DNA of 64,000 bases from Escherichia coli (lineage in GTDB: Bacteria > Pseudomonadota > Gammaproteobacteria > Enterobacterales > Enterobacteriaceae). Positions 2,479-40,441 of the stretch are shown piece by piece. The notes under the pieces are model-generated. The model made no database searches. It had not been told where the DNA came from and was given only the letters and a program-made list of their open reading frames with translations. The position numbers and the translations under genes were made by a program. Positions within the stretch are counted from its first letter, which is position 1. Every line of letters starts with the position of its first letter. The stretch is taken from assembly GCF_048403405.1 (NCBI RefSeq), contig NZ_CP183129.1. The stretch is one strand, 5' to 3'.

Positions 2479-2888
2479 GGTGTGCTATCCATCAAAAAGA
2501 AAGGATAAGATCACACTGAAATAAGATGGTCAAATTGATCGAAAAAAAGATCAACATGATGGGTTTTACGATAAAAGTAATGTCGCGATTTAAAAATTCA
2601 TCATTCACCAAAGTCTTGTGGGGCGCGGGCTTTCATGCTTTTTCCCTGATACGCTACCGCTCTGCCCTGATAACATGATCTGCACGGCGCTATCATATCG
2701 ACATATTTCTCTACATGCGAAAGGATGTTTTATTTTCGGATTATATTAAATTGATATTTCATATAAAAAACGAGATTACATAAATCATATAAATAATTGT
2801 ACCAACTTTAATTACCATTCATAGCAAACAAATGGATGTCCAGTTAACTACGCCAGTGATTTATTAACATTAATCTCCGGCATTATTG

Positions 2889-3495
2889 TTAAATAATGGC
2901 ATTCCTTTTTAGTATTTCTTGTAACGTTGGTATCGGACATACAGCATCAGCAATCGCACTGATATTCGCGGCATTATCTTGAAACCATTCATGCCCCGGT
3001 CCCCATATGCGCATAACGCAGAGATAAGGGTAGCTGATCGCCAAACGCATAAGGTTCAGCAGTGAGCTACGAATTCAACCAGATATAAAACGATTTTCGA
3101 TATTCAATAACATTCTTCTTTAACTGTTCGGGTGCGTCAGGAGCCCAACGCTCAGGGTAATCGGCGAAAGTGAATGTTGGATAGACATTAGCAACCAGCC
3201 AGACCAATAGCCGTTGAAACTGCTGACGTTCGGCGCGCCCAACCGGTGGCGCAAGGTCCGGGCGACGATCGAGAACCATCAATGCAATCGCCGCTGTCTC
3301 CGTCATAATCTCGTCATTTTCCAGCGCCAGTGTCGGAATCTGACACAACGGGTTCAGGGTTTTCAATAACTCGCGTGAGGTTCCCTCGTGGTCAAAACCA
3401 CTGACATCAACGAACTGATAAGGAATATCAGCCAGTGTTAGCATCAGCTCACTGATTGTAGAGCCCCATCCGGGTACGCCATACACCTTAATCAT
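2889..3495 (-). pseudogene. yncG: glutathione S-transferase-like protein YncG, disrupted (nonsense plus frameshift)
   Basis: ORF 3067..3495 gives GST N-domain MIKVYGVPGWGSTISELMLTLADIPYQF... then TAG at 3067-3069 where K-12 has Gln; downstream LTAEPYAFG..WGPGHEWFQDN..LKRNAII still readable but needs a frame change. Confidence 0.75.
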
Positions 3496-3761
3496 ATGCC
3501 CCTCACAATCTTTTAAAGATTAAGTGTAGGACAGTACACAGGTTAACCAGCAAAAGGATTTGTCATTTTTTCGTCAGTTGTATTATTCCCCTTCAGGATT
3601 GTAAGGGGATGTTTTGCATCGTTTATCGATAACGGGTAGGATGCTGCGCCGATAGTTTTATACCCATAAAGAATAATGGTGATAACTATCATCGCCAGGA
3701 TGAATAAACATTGTTCATGGCAACTTATATGACTTTTTCATTAAAGCAATCAGGGAGAGCA

Positions 3762-5261
3762 ATGAGTAAACACGACACCGACACTTCAGATCAACACGCC
3801 GCGAAACGCCGCTGGCTTAATGCCCACGAAGAGGGGTATCACAAAGCGATGGGCAATCGCCAGGTACAGATGATCGCCATTGGCGGCGCGATTGGTACGG
3901 GTTTGTTTTTAGGCGCGGGAGCCCGACTGCAAATGGCGGGGCCAGCACTGGCACTGGTCTATTTGATCTGCGGCCTGTTTTCATTTTTTATTCTGCGTGC
4001 ATTGGGTGAGCTGGTGTTACACCGCCCTTCCAGTGGCAGTTTTGTCTCTTATGCCCGTGAGTTTTTAGGAGAGAAAGCCGCTTACGTTGCAGGCTGGATG
4101 TACTTCATCAACTGGGCGATGACGGGGATTGTCGATATTACCGCCGTCGCTCTGTATATGCATTACTGGGGTGCGTTTGGCGGCGTGCCGCAGTGGGTCT
4201 TTGCGCTCGCTGCGCTGACCATCGTTGGCACCATGAATATGATCGGTGTGAAATGGTTTGCCGAGATGGAGTTCTGGTTTGCGCTTATTAAAGTGCTCGC
4301 CATTGTTACCTTTTTGGTCGTGGGTACAGTGTTCCTCGGTAGTGGTCAGCCGCTGGATGGCAACACCACTGGTTTTCATTTAATTACCGATAACGGCGGC
4401 TTCTTCCCCCACGGTTTGCTGCCTGCGCTGGTGTTGATTCAGGGCGTAGTGTTTGCTTTTGCCTCCATTGAAATGGTGGGTACAGCTGCCGGAGAATGTA
4501 AAGATCCGCAGACCATGGTGCCTAAAGCCATTAACAGTGTGATTTGGCGTATTGGCCTGTTTTACGTCGGCTCCGTGGTGTTGCTGGTTATGTTATTGCC
4601 GTGGAGCGCATATCAGGCGGGGCAAAGTCCGTTCGTGACGTTTTTCTCTAAACTGGGTGTGCCATATATCGGCAGCATTATGAACATTGTGGTGCTGACC
4701 GCTGCCCTCTCCAGCCTGAACTCAGGTCTGTACTGCACCGGACGTATTCTGCGCTCAATGGCGATGGGCGGTTCCGCACCGAGTTTTATGGCGAAAATGA
4801 GTCGTCAGCATGTGCCGTATGCCGGGATTCTGGCGACACTGGTTGTGTATGTCGTCGGCGTATTCCTCAACTATCTGGTGCCGTCGCGCGTATTTGAGAT
4901 TGTGTTGAACTTCGCGTCGCTGGGAATCATCGCCTCATGGGCGTTTATCATCGTGTGCCAGATGCGCCTGCGTAAAGCGATTAAAGAAGGCAAAGCCGCG
5001 GATGTCAGTTTTAAACTGCCTGGCGCGCCCTTCACTTCCTGGCTGACATTACTGTTTTTGCTGAGCGTCCTGGTGCTGATGGCGTTCGATTACCCGAACG
5101 GGACTTATACCATCGCGGCGCTGCCGATTATCGGTATTCTGCTGGTTATAGGCTGGTTTGGTGTGCGCAAACGCGTTGCTGAAATTCACAGCACTGCGCC
5201 AGTCGTCGAGGAAGATGAAGAACAACAGGAAATTGTGTTTAAGCCTGAAACGGCGAGTTAA
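3762..5261 (+). CDS. ansP: L-asparagine permease (APC family)
   Basis: Track ORF 3711..5261; start trimmed to ATG 3762 (MSKHDTDTSDQHAAKRRW..), 499 aa; multi-pass membrane protein with amino-acid permease motifs; position next to yncE. Confidence 0.93.
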   Translation: MSKHDTDTSDQHAAKRRWLNAHEEGYHKAMGNRQVQMIAIGGAIGTGLFLGAGARLQMAGPALALVYLICGLFSFFILRALGELVLHRPSSGSFVSYAREFLGEKAAYVAGWMYFINWAMTGIVDITAVALYMHYWGAFGGVPQWVFALAALTIVGTMNMIGVKWFAEMEFWFALIKVLAIVTFLVVGTVFLGSGQPLDGNTTGFHLITDNGGFFPHGLLPALVLIQGVVFAFASIEMVGTAAGECKDPQTMVPKAINSVIWRIGLFYVGSVVLLVMLLPWSAYQAGQSPFVTFFSKLGVPYIGSIMNIVVLTAALSSLNSGLYCTGRILRSMAMGGSAPSFMAKMSRQHVPYAGILATLVVYVVGVFLNYLVPSRVFEIVLNFASLGIIASWAFIIVCQMRLRKAIKEGKAADVSFKLPGAPFTSWLTLLFLLSVLVLMAFDYPNGTYTIAALPIIGILLVIGWFGVRKRVAEIHSTAPVVEEDEEQQEIVFKPETAS

Positions 5262-8810: not shown

Positions 8811-8883
8811 TAATTGTGCACAGAAAACCCCCAGCTAGGCTGGGGGTTCCGGAAAGCTTTCAGCTTTAAGCCAGTTATTAAAA

Positions 8884-8952
8884 CCCCTTTTGATTTGTTA
8901 AAACACCTTGCGGTCTGGCAACTGCAAGTGTCAAACAAGAAATCAAAAGGGG
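8884..8952 (+). promoter_or_regulatory. RBS-sequestering stem-loop of IS200 tnpA
   Basis: CCCCTTTTGATTT (8884-8896) is the exact reverse complement of AAATCAAAAGGGG (8940-8952); the right arm covers the AAGGGGG Shine-Dalgarno 7 nt before ATG 8959. Confidence 0.7.
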
Positions 8953-36304: not shown

Positions 36305-36611
36305 ACCAAAAACCTCTTTGCGTCACATTTTTACAACAATTATGGCAGAGAAGAATAATGCCATTGGAATGAAGAGAGTAACGAATGATTAAACTGGCTA
36401 AACCGAATGACGAAAAATTCTGGAAAACAGCACGCAATTTCGTGAAGTGATTATTTTCGTCCCTAAGGAAACCTCATAGGATGCCTGCGGGTGCCTGAGA
36501 CTTTCTGTTTTCAGGCTAACCGGGAATCAGAAAGACGAAGGCCCCGACCGATATTTCTATCAACTGTACTGCACCCATTTTGTTGGACGATGAAATGGAA
36601 TAGCCCCTAAT

Positions 36612-37133
36612 ATGTCAAAGCCAAAATACCCTTTTGAAAAGCGCCTTGAAGTCGTGAATCACTACTTCACAACTGATGATGGTTACAGGATCATCTCGGC
36701 ACGTTTTGGTGTCCCCCGAACCCAGGTCAGGACATGGGTTGCCCTCTATGAAAAACATGGAGAAAAAGGTTTAATTCCCAAACCTAAAGGCGTTAGTGCT
36801 GATCCAGAGTTGCGTATTAAGGTCGTGAAAGCTGTGATCGAGCAGCACATGTCCCTTAATCAGGCTGCTGCTCACTTTATGCTTGCTGGTAGTGGTTCTG
36901 TAGCCAGGTGGCTGAAGGTCTATGAAGAGCGCGGAGAAGCTGGTTTACGCGCGCTCAAGATTGGCACCAAAAGAAACATTGCAATATCAGTTGATCCAGA
37001 AAAAGCGGCATCAGCATTGGAGCTGTCAAAAGACCGACGCATTGAGGATCTTGAAAGGCAAGTTCGATTTCTTGAAACGCGGCTTATGTATCTAAAAAAG
37101 CTGAAAGCCTTAGCTCATCCCACGAAAAAGTAA
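36612..37133 (+). CDS. insJ: IS150 OrfA (InsJ), HTH DNA-binding protein
   Basis: 173 aa MSKPKYPFEKRLEVVNHYFTTDDGYRIISARFGVPRTQVRTWV..; slippery heptamer A_AAA_AAG at 37094-37100 near its 3' end. Confidence 0.9.
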   Translation: MSKPKYPFEKRLEVVNHYFTTDDGYRIISARFGVPRTQVRTWVALYEKHGEKGLIPKPKGVSADPELRIKVVKAVIEQHMSLNQAAAHFMLAGSGSVARWLKVYEERGEAGLRALKIGTKRNIAISVDPEKAASALELSKDRRIEDLERQVRFLETRLMYLKKLKALAHPTKK

Positions 37134-37981
37134 AAGTACTCAACGAGCTAAGGCAGTTTTATCCTCTTGATGAGCTTCTCAGGGCTGCGGAGATACCGCG
37201 CAGTACGTTTTATTACCATCTAAAGGCTCTCAGCAAGCCTGACAAGTATGCGGACGTTAAAAAGCGTATTGGTGAGATTTATCACGAGAATAGAGGCCGA
37301 TACGGATACCGTAGGGTAACGCTGTCTCTTCATCGAGAAGGGAAACAGATTAACCATAAAGCTGTTCAGCGCCTGATGGGAACCCTCTCACTTAAAGCAG
37401 CGATTAAGGTCAAGCGATACCGCTCTTACAGAGGAGAGGTAGGGCAAACCGCCCCTAATGTTCTCCAAAGAGATTTCAAGGCTACGCGGCCAAACGAGAA
37501 GTGGGTTACCGATGTTACTGAATTTGCAGTCAATGGGCGCAAGCTGTATTTGTCTCCAGTAATAGATCTCTTCAACAACGAAGTTATTTCTTACAGCCTT
37601 TCGGAAAGACCAGTGATGAACATGGTTGAGAATATGCTCGATCAGGCATTCAAAAAGCTTAATCCTCACGAGCATCCTGTTCTGCACTCTGACCAGGGAT
37701 GGCAGTATCGTATGAGAAGATATCAAAATATCCTTAAAGAACATGGTATTAAACAAAGCATGTCCAGAAAAGGCAATTGTCTGGATAATGCTGTGGTGGA
37801 GTGTTTCTTTGGAACCTTAAAGTCGGAGTGTTTTTATCTTGATGAGTTCAGTAATATAAGCGAACTGAAGGATGCTGTTACGGAATATATTGAATACTAC
37901 AACAGCAGAAGAATTAGCCTGAAATTAAAAGGTCTGACTCCAATTGAATATCGGAATCAGACCTATATGCCTCGTGTTTAA
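37130..37981 (+). CDS. insK: IS150 OrfB (InsK), DDE transposase; made as OrfAB fusion by -1 frameshift
   Basis: Open -1 frame from the slippery site to 37981 (..[60 protein letters not shown]..); the track shows only the part after the first Met (37376). Confidence 0.8.
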
Positions 37982-38023
37982 CTGTCCAACTTTTTGGGGT
38001 CAGTACACAACCGAGGCCAACGA

Positions 38024-38231
<208 letters not shown>

Positions 38232-38302
38232 GGGCAAGCGCGGGGATTTTCCCCGCGCATCTGACTAGCAGATTCATTTTCTCATGGCACCCCTTTTACA
38301 CT

Positions 38303-38476: not shown

Positions 38477-38647
38477 ATAACCTCCATGGTTTATCGAATC
38501 TTATGTTCGATTTGAACGTTATACGCTGGTTTATTTTGATACCGTTGATGAGATCAAAGATCGGGCGAATTGATTAAAGATAAGCCAGATGGACGTATGG
38601 ATAAGGATTATGGTTTTATTTGTCATACAAATAAATATAATAGGCGC

Positions 38648-38711
38648 TTCCGATGTAGACCCGTATTCTTCGCCTGTACCACGGGTCGGTTTTAGTACAG
38701 GCGTTTTCTTT
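38648..38711 (+). ncRNA. rydC: RydC small regulatory RNA (Hfq-dependent)
   Basis: CTTCCGATGTAGACCCGTATTCTTCGCCTGTACCACGGGTCGGTTTTAGTACAGGCGTTTTCTT recognised from memory as RydC; TATAAT at 38634-38639 upstream; ends in GCCTGTAC..GTACAGGC hairpin plus U-run. Confidence 0.8.
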
Positions 38712-39439: not shown

Positions 39440-40441
39440 ATGAGTAAAGTTGGTATTAATGGTTTTGGTCGTATCGGTCGACTGGTGTTGCGTCGATTAC
39501 TTGAAGTCAAAAGCAACATAGACATTGTTGCTATTAATGATCTCACTTCCCCAAAAATTCTCGCCTACCTGTTGAAACATGATTCAAACTACGGACCGTT
39601 CCCCTGGAGCGTTGATTTTACGGAAGATTCACTTATCGTTGATGGAAAAAGTATCGCGGTTTACGCCGAAAAAGAGGCTAAAAATATTCCGTGGAAAGCG
39701 AAAGGCGCAGAAATCATTGTCGAATGTACTGGCTTTTATACCTCCGCCGAGAAATCGCAGGCGCATCTTGATGCTGGTGCGAAGAAGGTGTTGATTTCCG
39801 CCCCTGCCGGTGAAATGAAAACCATCGTTTATAACGTCAATGACGACACACTGGATGGCAACGACACCATTGTTTCCGTGGCGTCATGCACCACTAATTG
39901 TCTTGCACCGATGGCCAAAGCCTTGCACGACAGTTTCGGAATAGAAGTCGGCACGATGACGACCATTCATGCCTATACCGGCACTCAGTCACTGGTGGAT
40001 GGCCCGCGTGGTAAAGATCTACGCGCTTCACGTGCAGCGGCAGAAAATATCATTCCCCACACTACGGGGGCGGCAAAAGCCATTGGTCTGGTGATCCCAG
40101 AACTGAGCGGCAAACTGAAAGGTCATGCACAACGCGTACCCGTGAAAACCGGTTCGGTGACTGAACTGGTGTCTATTCTTGGAAAAAAAGTGACTGCCGA
40201 AGAGGTGAACAACGCGCTTAAAAACGCGACAAACAATAACGAGTCATTTGGTTATACCGATGAAGAAATAGTCTCTTCCGATATCATTGGCAGCCATTTC
40301 GGTTCGGTGTTTGATGCCACGCAAACCGAAATTACCGCCGTGGGCGATTTACAACTGGTGAAAACGGTCGCCTGGTACGATAACGAATATGGCTTCGTCA
40401 CGCAGCTTATTCGCACCCTCGAAAAATTCGCTAAACTCTGA
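39440..40441 (+). CDS. gapC: glyceraldehyde-3-phosphate dehydrogenase GapC, full length
   Basis: 333 aa uninterrupted ORF with NAD-binding INGFGRIGR and active-site SCTTNCLAP; good Shine-Dalgarno (AGGAGAA) before ATG 39440. Confidence 0.9.

Follow-up and report, generated by a model that had tools for sequence, protein, structure and literature searches.

The window, by which we mean the whole 64,000-nucleotide stretch of Escherichia coli DNA that was analysed, very probably carries a sokB::IS150 allele, in which an intact IS150 occupies a repeatedly struck site of the hokB/sokB locus, the toxin mRNA is uncoupled, a chimeric Sok RNA is kept, and the position of the element reflects a target preference. 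An insertion of this kind is already known, as a common natural allele of a well-known class, and PGAP already places IS150 beside hokB in hundreds of genomes. Of remaining interest are the proposed targeting of type I toxin-antitoxin loci by IS150, anchored to a motif and specific in orientation, and the predicted chimeric, functional Sok RNA.

An intact IS150 within the hokB/sokB locus

The inserted element (36565-38007, + strand) is 1443 bp long and is identified as IS150, of the IS3 family, from its near-identity to the K-12 copy, with 3 mismatches in 1443 positions (at 568, 652 and 707) relative to the IS150 annotated beside hokA in K-12 MG1655. Its left (36565-36588) and right (37984-38007) ends form imperfect inverted repeats, TGTACTG...CAGTACA, which agree at 18 of the first 24 positions in a script check. 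The orfA frame (36612-37133, + strand) is intact and encodes a 173-aa InsA, the exact protein being present in many IS150 copies. The A AAA AAG -1 frameshift site (37094-37100, + strand) is likewise intact and leads into the orfB part of the OrfAB transposase, with its rve/DDE domain (37100-37981, + strand, within an open frame spanning 37076-37981). The resulting 456-aa OrfAB fusion scores 414 bits against the NCBIfam IS3 family transposase model NF033516 (cutoff 160), precomputed Pfam hits place PF00665 (rve) on an identical 201-aa C-terminal product, and PGAP labels the gene ‘IS3-like element IS150 family transposase’ in identical genomes. Structural features of the IS150 group were found, namely the length and identity, the TG...CA repeats, a DDE transposase made by -1 frameshifting and a duplication of 3-4 bp. 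An earlier sequence-only reading of the window had described an element of exactly 1443 bp with imperfect terminal repeats, intact orfA and orfB and an A_AAA_AAG frameshift site, and this description held in every part once the ends were compared, the frames read and the fusion scored. Every part of this IS150 copy is intact, and the genomes that carry the insertion have IS150 at several places.

The element is flanked by CAAC on the left (36561-36564) and on the right (38008-38011), as established by reading the sequence, by script and by alignment to K-12. The sequence-only reading had taken these flanks for a 4-bp target duplication and had proposed comparison with an uninterrupted trg-hokB interval as a check. 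The empty site was reconstructed in silico by deleting IS150 together with one CAAC. The reconstructed site aligns colinearly with trg-hokB of K-12 (98% identity), CAAC occurring once, and over 289 nt it matches strain CFSAN061763 at every position (100% identity). As the empty sites in these two strains are colinear with the window and hold a single CAAC, the 4-bp duplication is genuine. The right end of IS150 (38007) lies 16 bp from the mokB ATG (38024), again as first read.

The insertion divides the locus, leaving the probable hokB promoter and the tac/ucb segment to the left of IS150 and SD-mok, mokB, hokB, fbi and the probable sokB promoter to the right. Rfam model RF01794, which represents the hok leader from its 5' end through to the hok ATG, gives one contiguous match of 109.7 bits on the hokB strand of K-12. 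In the window it gives two partial matches flanking IS150 (72.4 and 43.7 bits), with model positions 1-84 at 36489-36564 and the remainder at 38008-38087, so that hokB here lacks a contiguous structured 5' leader. The 5' part of the leader (36489-36564, + strand), comprising the tac-ucb stem and most of hairpin 2, is identical to K-12 and is now detached from mok/hok. Just upstream of its 5' end at 36489 is a putative hokB promoter (36454-36482, + strand; -35 TTTTCG, 17-nt spacer, -10 TAGGAT), which is assigned by position and was not flagged by the consensus scan. The expectation that the hokB promoter and 5' leader would lie to the left of the element agrees with these positions, directly for the leader and putatively for the promoter. 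The tac element at the extreme 5' end of the hokB mRNA (36489-36517, + strand) pairs with fbi, its 3' fold-back partner (38256-38293, + strand; core TCTCATGGCACCC), in duplex and fold computations. The tac-fbi duplex has an energy of -31.2 kcal/mol, compared with a shuffle mean of -19.4 (sd 3.1), and the minimum free energy fold of the reconstructed 365-nt hokB mRNA closes the 5' end on the 3' end. These two complementary sequences are now 1.8 kb apart in the window.

Both reading frames downstream of the insertion are intact. mokB (55 codons; 38024-38191, + strand) is colinear with the annotated K-12 gene, and hokB (49 aa; 38082-38231, + strand) differs from K-12 by H3R and matches the Hok family toxin model NF007279 with 100.3 bits (cutoff 73). 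The window therefore retains a Hok-family frame of about 50 aa with an overlapping mok frame, and the toxin frame is undamaged, as the sequence-only reading had it. A small open reading frame at 36491-36610 that runs into IS150, and Rfam matches to SNORA29 and mir-15, were dismissed as chance.

The antisense gene is interrupted. In K-12, sokB is annotated as a 57-nt antisense RNA that starts 10 nt within mokB and ends 46 nt before the mokB ATG. When mapped onto the window, it runs from 38034 (5' end) to 36531 (3' end), with IS150 inserted after nucleotide 27 of 57. Native SokB folds into a hairpin of 14 bp, preceded by 16 single-stranded nt at the 5' end and followed by a U-rich tail, and IS150 lies in the 5' arm of the hairpin. 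The retained 27 nt (38008-38034, - strand) comprise the single-stranded 16-nt tail and 11 nt of the 5' stem arm and are now fused to IS150 antisense sequence; the detached 3' part (36531-36564, - strand) holds the 3' arm of the terminator hairpin and the U-rich tail. The window accordingly has no intact antisense sok with its own terminator, the gene being split in the terminator stem. sokB had been thought to be cut or displaced, and of these two it is cut. From the start given by the K-12 sokB annotation (38034), we infer a sokB promoter at 38042-38070 (- strand), with hexamers read off the sequence (-35 TTGCCT, 17-nt spacer, -10 TAACAT). The insertion point is between the second leader hairpin and the Sok-target hairpin, 4 bp before CGAGGCC (38012-38018, + strand), which forms SD-mok and the base of the Sok-target hairpin and is an instance of the motif YGRGGC.

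Predicted toxin and antitoxin expression

In this arrangement, transcription from the hokB promoter would run through 76 nt of leader and then into IS150, and the normal hokB mRNA of about 365 nt, with paired 5' and 3' ends, could no longer be made. hokB transcription would be possible only through read-through of the 1.4 kb IS150, and because hokB would be reached in this way alone, the locus probably yields less toxin or none. The sokB promoter would still fire, into the right end of IS150; the predicted product is a chimeric SokB RNA, roughly 110 nt in length, whose first 27 nt remain complementary to the start codon and SD region of mokB. This RNA may end within the element, where a terminator-like scan found a 15-bp hairpin followed by UUUUAAUUU (37930-37964, - strand), a candidate terminator for transcripts from the sokB promoter; the same hairpin is also obtained when the chimeric RNA is folded computationally. 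As the chimeric RNA would hold both the 27 nt and IS150 antisense sequence, a read-through transcript would still be confronted with an antisense RNA complementary to it throughout. These effects, namely hokB silencing, formation of the chimeric SokB RNA and the ending of that RNA within IS150, are predictions from this model, in which the most likely net effect is that toxin expression would be lost or strongly reduced, rather than freed from Sok control. Some read-through into mokB/hokB may nevertheless occur, with the hokB promoter, the IS150 promoter and hokB all pointing in the same direction. By analogy, sok::IS150 alleles need not be neutral, as the phenotype of sokE::IS150 is reversed by sokE+ (PMC11551753).

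The opposite outcome, in which the insertion activates hokB through IS150 read-through or a hybrid promoter at the right end, and more toxin is made without the inhibitory leader or a functional SokB, leading for example to more persisters, appears quite improbable. Its attraction is that IS150 is co-directional with hokB, that the scan found no terminator-like site on the + strand between orfB and mokB, that a transcript without tac/ucb would be unable to form the closed tac-fbi structure, that SokB is deprived of its terminator, and that sokE::IS150 does have a phenotype. The consensus scan, however, found nothing promoter-like directed outward from the right end of IS150, and the sokB promoter and 27-nt 5' segment are kept, so that the chimeric antisense would be fully complementary to any read-through RNA. 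The proposal of the sequence-only reading that outward transcription from the element could drive mok/hok without Sok control thus found no support. Stable carriage in more than 500 genomes and repeated rise in evolving cultures also fit poorly with the release of a membrane toxin. Under the preferred reading, with toxin expression lost or strongly reduced, the insertion would be tolerated and would recur mainly through the preference of IS150 for its target, YGRGGC following the 3-4 bp duplication on the side of the right inverted repeat.

Recurrence of the insertion and the IS150 target

Among 5,426 complete E. coli genomes, the hokB locus is uninterrupted in 4,490, and 562 contain the entire arrangement of 2,071 nt at a single place with coverage of at least 80%, these and the following genome counts reflecting clonal expansion rather than the number of insertion events. 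A 40-nt right-junction probe with CAAC, as in the window, matched 11 genomes, and the corresponding probe with AAC, representing a 3-bp duplication, matched 520. The left-junction probe matched 941 genomes, which exceeds the number of hokB carriers because paralogous hok leaders also match it. In 13 genomes IS150 lies inverted in the hokB leader, with the duplication ACC; here the element is shifted upstream by 15 bp and immediately follows GGCCCCG, which is the second arm of the palindrome in the terminator, and seen from the element the right end is followed by GGT and then CGGGGCC.

At least four combinations of flank and IS150 haplotype were found among the carriers compared. Window-type flanks with the window variant of IS150 occur with a 4-bp duplication in six genomes that are 100% identical to the window, and with a 3-bp duplication in NMBU_W05E18 (one extra SNP in IS150) and others. 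K-12-like flanks with canonical IS150 occur with a 3-bp duplication in CP53 and with a 4-bp duplication in 21AR0133 and PSS-04, and a third flank haplotype, with canonical IS150 carrying two further SNPs, occurs with a 4-bp duplication in E189 and 4314.

The same place is struck outside hokB. The position homologous to the hokB site is occupied by IS150 in hokA, hokC, hokE and plasmid hok, including the R1-type locus. With IS150 placed in its own orientation, and each junction given as the duplication followed by the flank after the right end, the sequences are ACC and CGAGGCC at hokC, AAG and TGAGGCC or TGAGGCT at hokA, CCC and TGGGGCT at hokE, ACC and CGAGGCC at plasmid hok, and CCA and CGAGGCA at R1-type plasmid hok (L147). 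Further junctions were read in the tac element of R1-type hok (CGCT, TGAGGCT), at chaA-ldr (CCGG, TGAGGCG), in a prophage (GAA, TGAGGCT) and in a receptor gene (GTT, TGGGGCT); loci L141 (AAA, TGGCGCC) and L146 (TCTG, GGGGGCT) fit more loosely, and the motif is absent at radC and L148. In the hok cases at these other loci IS150 is co-directional with hok, apart from the rearranged K-12 hokA copy. YGRGGC directly follows the duplication on the right-repeat side at nearly all sites read, which number about 15 distinct sites, many of them leaders of hok paralogues, which are alike in sequence through common ancestry. At non-hok sites the exact motif is present in 3 of 7, against a chance expectation of about 1 per thousand positions, which argues, in this small sample, for a real target preference. 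Sok terminators of hok-family loci are palindromic and carry the motif on both arms, as CGAGGCC and CGGGGCC, and further copies lie in the tac element of R1-type hok (TGAGGCT) and at the ldr locus (TGAGGCG).

We consider it about an even chance that IS150 has a previously undescribed sequence-specific, oriented target, in which its right end is followed by a 3-4 bp duplication and YGRGGC(Y), and that type I toxin-antitoxin loci are built-in traps for it. Searches of the searchable literature found no published target consensus for IS150, and the YGRGGC motif immediately after the duplication on the right-end side is possibly new. A scan with the 20-nt IS150 right end returned, among the matches listed, Streptococcus and other Gram-positives, none with YGRGGC, and such matches are therefore uninformative on E. 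coli IS150. As a separate observation, the motif form TGGGGCY resembles TGGGGTC within the right repeat of IS150; the idea that the target resembles the whole terminal repeat was set aside as speculation, the likeness being limited to a short TGGGG core. At the main site, an insertion would remove the toxin promoter, keep the Sok promoter and the 5' recognition segment, and supply an IS150 hairpin as a substitute terminator, and on this model would amount to a safe disarming of the locus.

Two other accounts of the recurrence can be set against repeated targeted insertion. A single ancestral insertion could have spread by homologous recombination, with the 3- and 4-bp junctions produced by a later 1-nt indel, and genomes with flanks and IS150 variant identical to the window do show either AAC or CAAC. 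This applies to the window lineage alone, within which either a 1-nt indel or a separate insertion may account for the two junctions. Across the carriers as a whole such an origin is highly improbable: distinct IS150 variants go with distinct flank haplotypes, the 4-bp junction is found on at least three backgrounds, new trg/mokB insertions arise de novo in the laboratory (PMC5419217), and flank SNPs lie within 12-24 bp of IS150, which makes several independent insertions far likelier than one insertion spread by recombination. The recurrence could instead reflect selection for loss of the toxin-antitoxin system, with IS150 inserting anywhere and only the harmless or beneficial position surviving. 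Authors of evolution studies read such insertions as inactivation of redundant functions or as targets of selection (PMC5419217, 10.1101/027086, 10.1101/527788), and insertions that remove Sok while leaving hok expressed would be counter-selected. We nevertheless regard selection as an unlikely explanation, as inactivation would accept many positions and both orientations, whereas the left junction is the same to the nucleotide across haplotypes, the homologous position is used in five hok paralogues, and both palindrome arms are used, each in the orientation predicted by the motif. Moreover, non-hok sites carry the same motif, and identical IS150 mutations arise in mutation-accumulation lines too (PMC5419217).

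The allele has practical consequences. As the same junction arises independently many times, it is homoplasic and calls for caution in association studies. For annotation, sokB should be marked as disrupted in carrier genomes, and in studies of persistence the hokB of carriers should not be assumed equal to the K-12 gene. If true, oriented motif targeting of hok, ldr and plasmid hok would explain the frequent IS inactivation of chromosomal hok loci.

Comparison with known systems

Independent lines evolved from an E. coli B derivative repeatedly acquire IS150 at trg/mokB, hokC/nhaA and hokE, and the authors point out that the IS150 mutations are the same in different lines and appear also in mutation-accumulation experiments (PMC5419217). 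bioRxiv 10.1101/027086, citing Woods et al. 2006, describes hokB/sokB as a common target in the LTEE. The insertions of the LTEE and of the anaerobic and fluctuating REL4536 lines, matched to the window by gene names, resemble it in being recurrent and in placing IS150 in trg/mokB or hokB/sokB; they differ in having arisen in the laboratory in strain B, whereas the allele in the window has become fixed in lineages from nature. Mobile-element insertions were surveyed in bioRxiv 10.1101/527788, where four hok/sok homologues lie near E. coli hot spots and an IS150 insertion is assigned to trg; the latter is plausibly an event at the hokB site.

The closest relatives of the window allele are the disrupted sok genes. 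sokE::IS150 is carried by XL1-Blue and by over 400 isolates from nature, can revert precisely, and has a phenotype that is reversed by sokE+ (PMC11551753). The same paper, citing Pedersen and Gerdes 1999, describes MG1655 sokA as also disrupted by IS150. The supplements of PMC11708052 and PMC11551753 contain nothing on hok. Like these two alleles, the window has IS150 inside the sok of a chromosomal hok locus, just upstream of SD-mok and with the hok frame untouched, although sokE and sokA belong to paralogous loci. At the hokE and hokA sites that were read, IS150 points in the same direction as hok and sits at the equivalent place in the leader, where a 3-bp duplication precedes TGGGGCT or TGAGGCC. 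The K-12 hokA copy, in contrast, is inverted and without a duplication, and about 45 bp of mokA 5' sequence is lost.

A second type of disruption is provided by IS186, which lies downstream of K-12 hokC (gef) and hokE and is thought to disable the long-range folding of the mRNA (PMC3562002). As in the window, the element is near the hok reading frame and not within it. A different IS acts there at the other end of the mRNA and removes fbi, whereas in the window the promoter, tac and ucb are separated from the gene and sok is cut. The hok/sok system of plasmid R1 has the same architecture as hokB, with a tac-ucb stem, overlapping mok and hok, antisense Sok over the mok start and tac-fbi closure. 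It differs as a plasmid system of post-segregational killing, whereas hokB is chromosomal and, in the window, physically interrupted.

Preference for palindromic or inverted-repeat-like targets is a feature of other IS3-family elements, with IS1397 and ISKpn1 inserting in the palindromic units of BIMEs and IS911 next to sequences that resemble its inverted repeats. IS150 at the hokB/sokB site is like these elements, as an IS3-family insertion at a fixed place beside a short GC-rich motif in hairpin-forming sequence.

Sequence differences and reading frames at the IS150 right end

Four positions distinguish the window from K-12 in the hokB stretch to the right of the IS. Reading rightward, these fall at nucleotide 4 of SokB (38031), in the inferred sokB -10 hexamer (38044; TAACAT in the window versus TAAGAT in K-12), in the inferred sokB -35 hexamer (38065; TTGCCT versus TTGCCG) and in hokB codon 3, which encodes arginine in the window and histidine in K-12 (38089). 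Within the element itself, a 15-bp hairpin followed by a U-run lies on the minus strand at 37930-37964, antisense to orfB and some 45 nt in from the right end, and was present in all IS150 copies examined. This hairpin could stop transcription that enters IS150 from the right flank. On the plus strand, the right repeat of IS150 contains a TTG codon in the mokB frame that would lengthen mokB by 10 codons, to a 65-amino acid open reading frame (37994-38191); this extension is probably without significance. The right junction is also seen in a rearranged carrier, strain PSS-04, which keeps the CAAC right junction of the hokB IS150 and has IS1 in place of the left flank; the hokB leader and the trg side are lost or rearranged in this strain.

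Neighboring genes and small RNAs

Two small RNAs in the window reached the Rfam gathering level, both on the plus strand. RydC (38647-38710; 92.5 bits, full-length model) is flanked by ydcA and cybB, as it is in K-12, and the only further match was the Hfq-binding STnc490 (8826-8949; 146 bits). The plus-strand gapC (39440-40441) is an intact open reading frame of 333 amino acids, whereas it is annotated as a pseudogene in K-12; IS150 carriers are mixed in this respect, with gapC intact in some and frameshifted in others.

Insertion sites of elements with an IS150-like end

Among the matches listed for the last 20 nt of IS150 (L016-L135; mostly Streptococcus and Granulicatella, with one Alistipes MAG), Gram-positive genomes have elements that terminate in the identical sequence. 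Of the 116 right flanks listed, 61 contain five or more consecutive T residues within 30 nt, as opposed to 7% at random positions of the same loci, and this sequence enrichment suggests that these elements insert into terminators. The YGRGGC motif was found in none of their listed right flanks.

IS150 at other type I toxin loci

At hokA, the K-12 IS150 (2634-4076 of locus L002) is inverted relative to the gene and has no target duplication, and the mokA 5' region is short of about 45 bp there. Three other strains (L008, L138, L140) carry a clean, co-directional IS150 at the hokA hot spot with an AAG duplication. In the psiA-hok region of IncF-like plasmids, IS150 was found in the R1-type hok tac element, the very 5' end of the hok mRNA (L153; duplication CGCT, then TGAGGCT). 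A second such insertion occupies the Sok-terminator site in an R1-type hok/sok locus (L147; CCA, then CGAGGCA). Finally, an IS150 copy in the ldr type I toxin region of the chaA-kdsA interval (L144), with the 4-bp duplication CCGG followed by TGAGGCG, agrees with the IS150 insertions at chaA/ldrC reported in evolved lines (PMC5419217).
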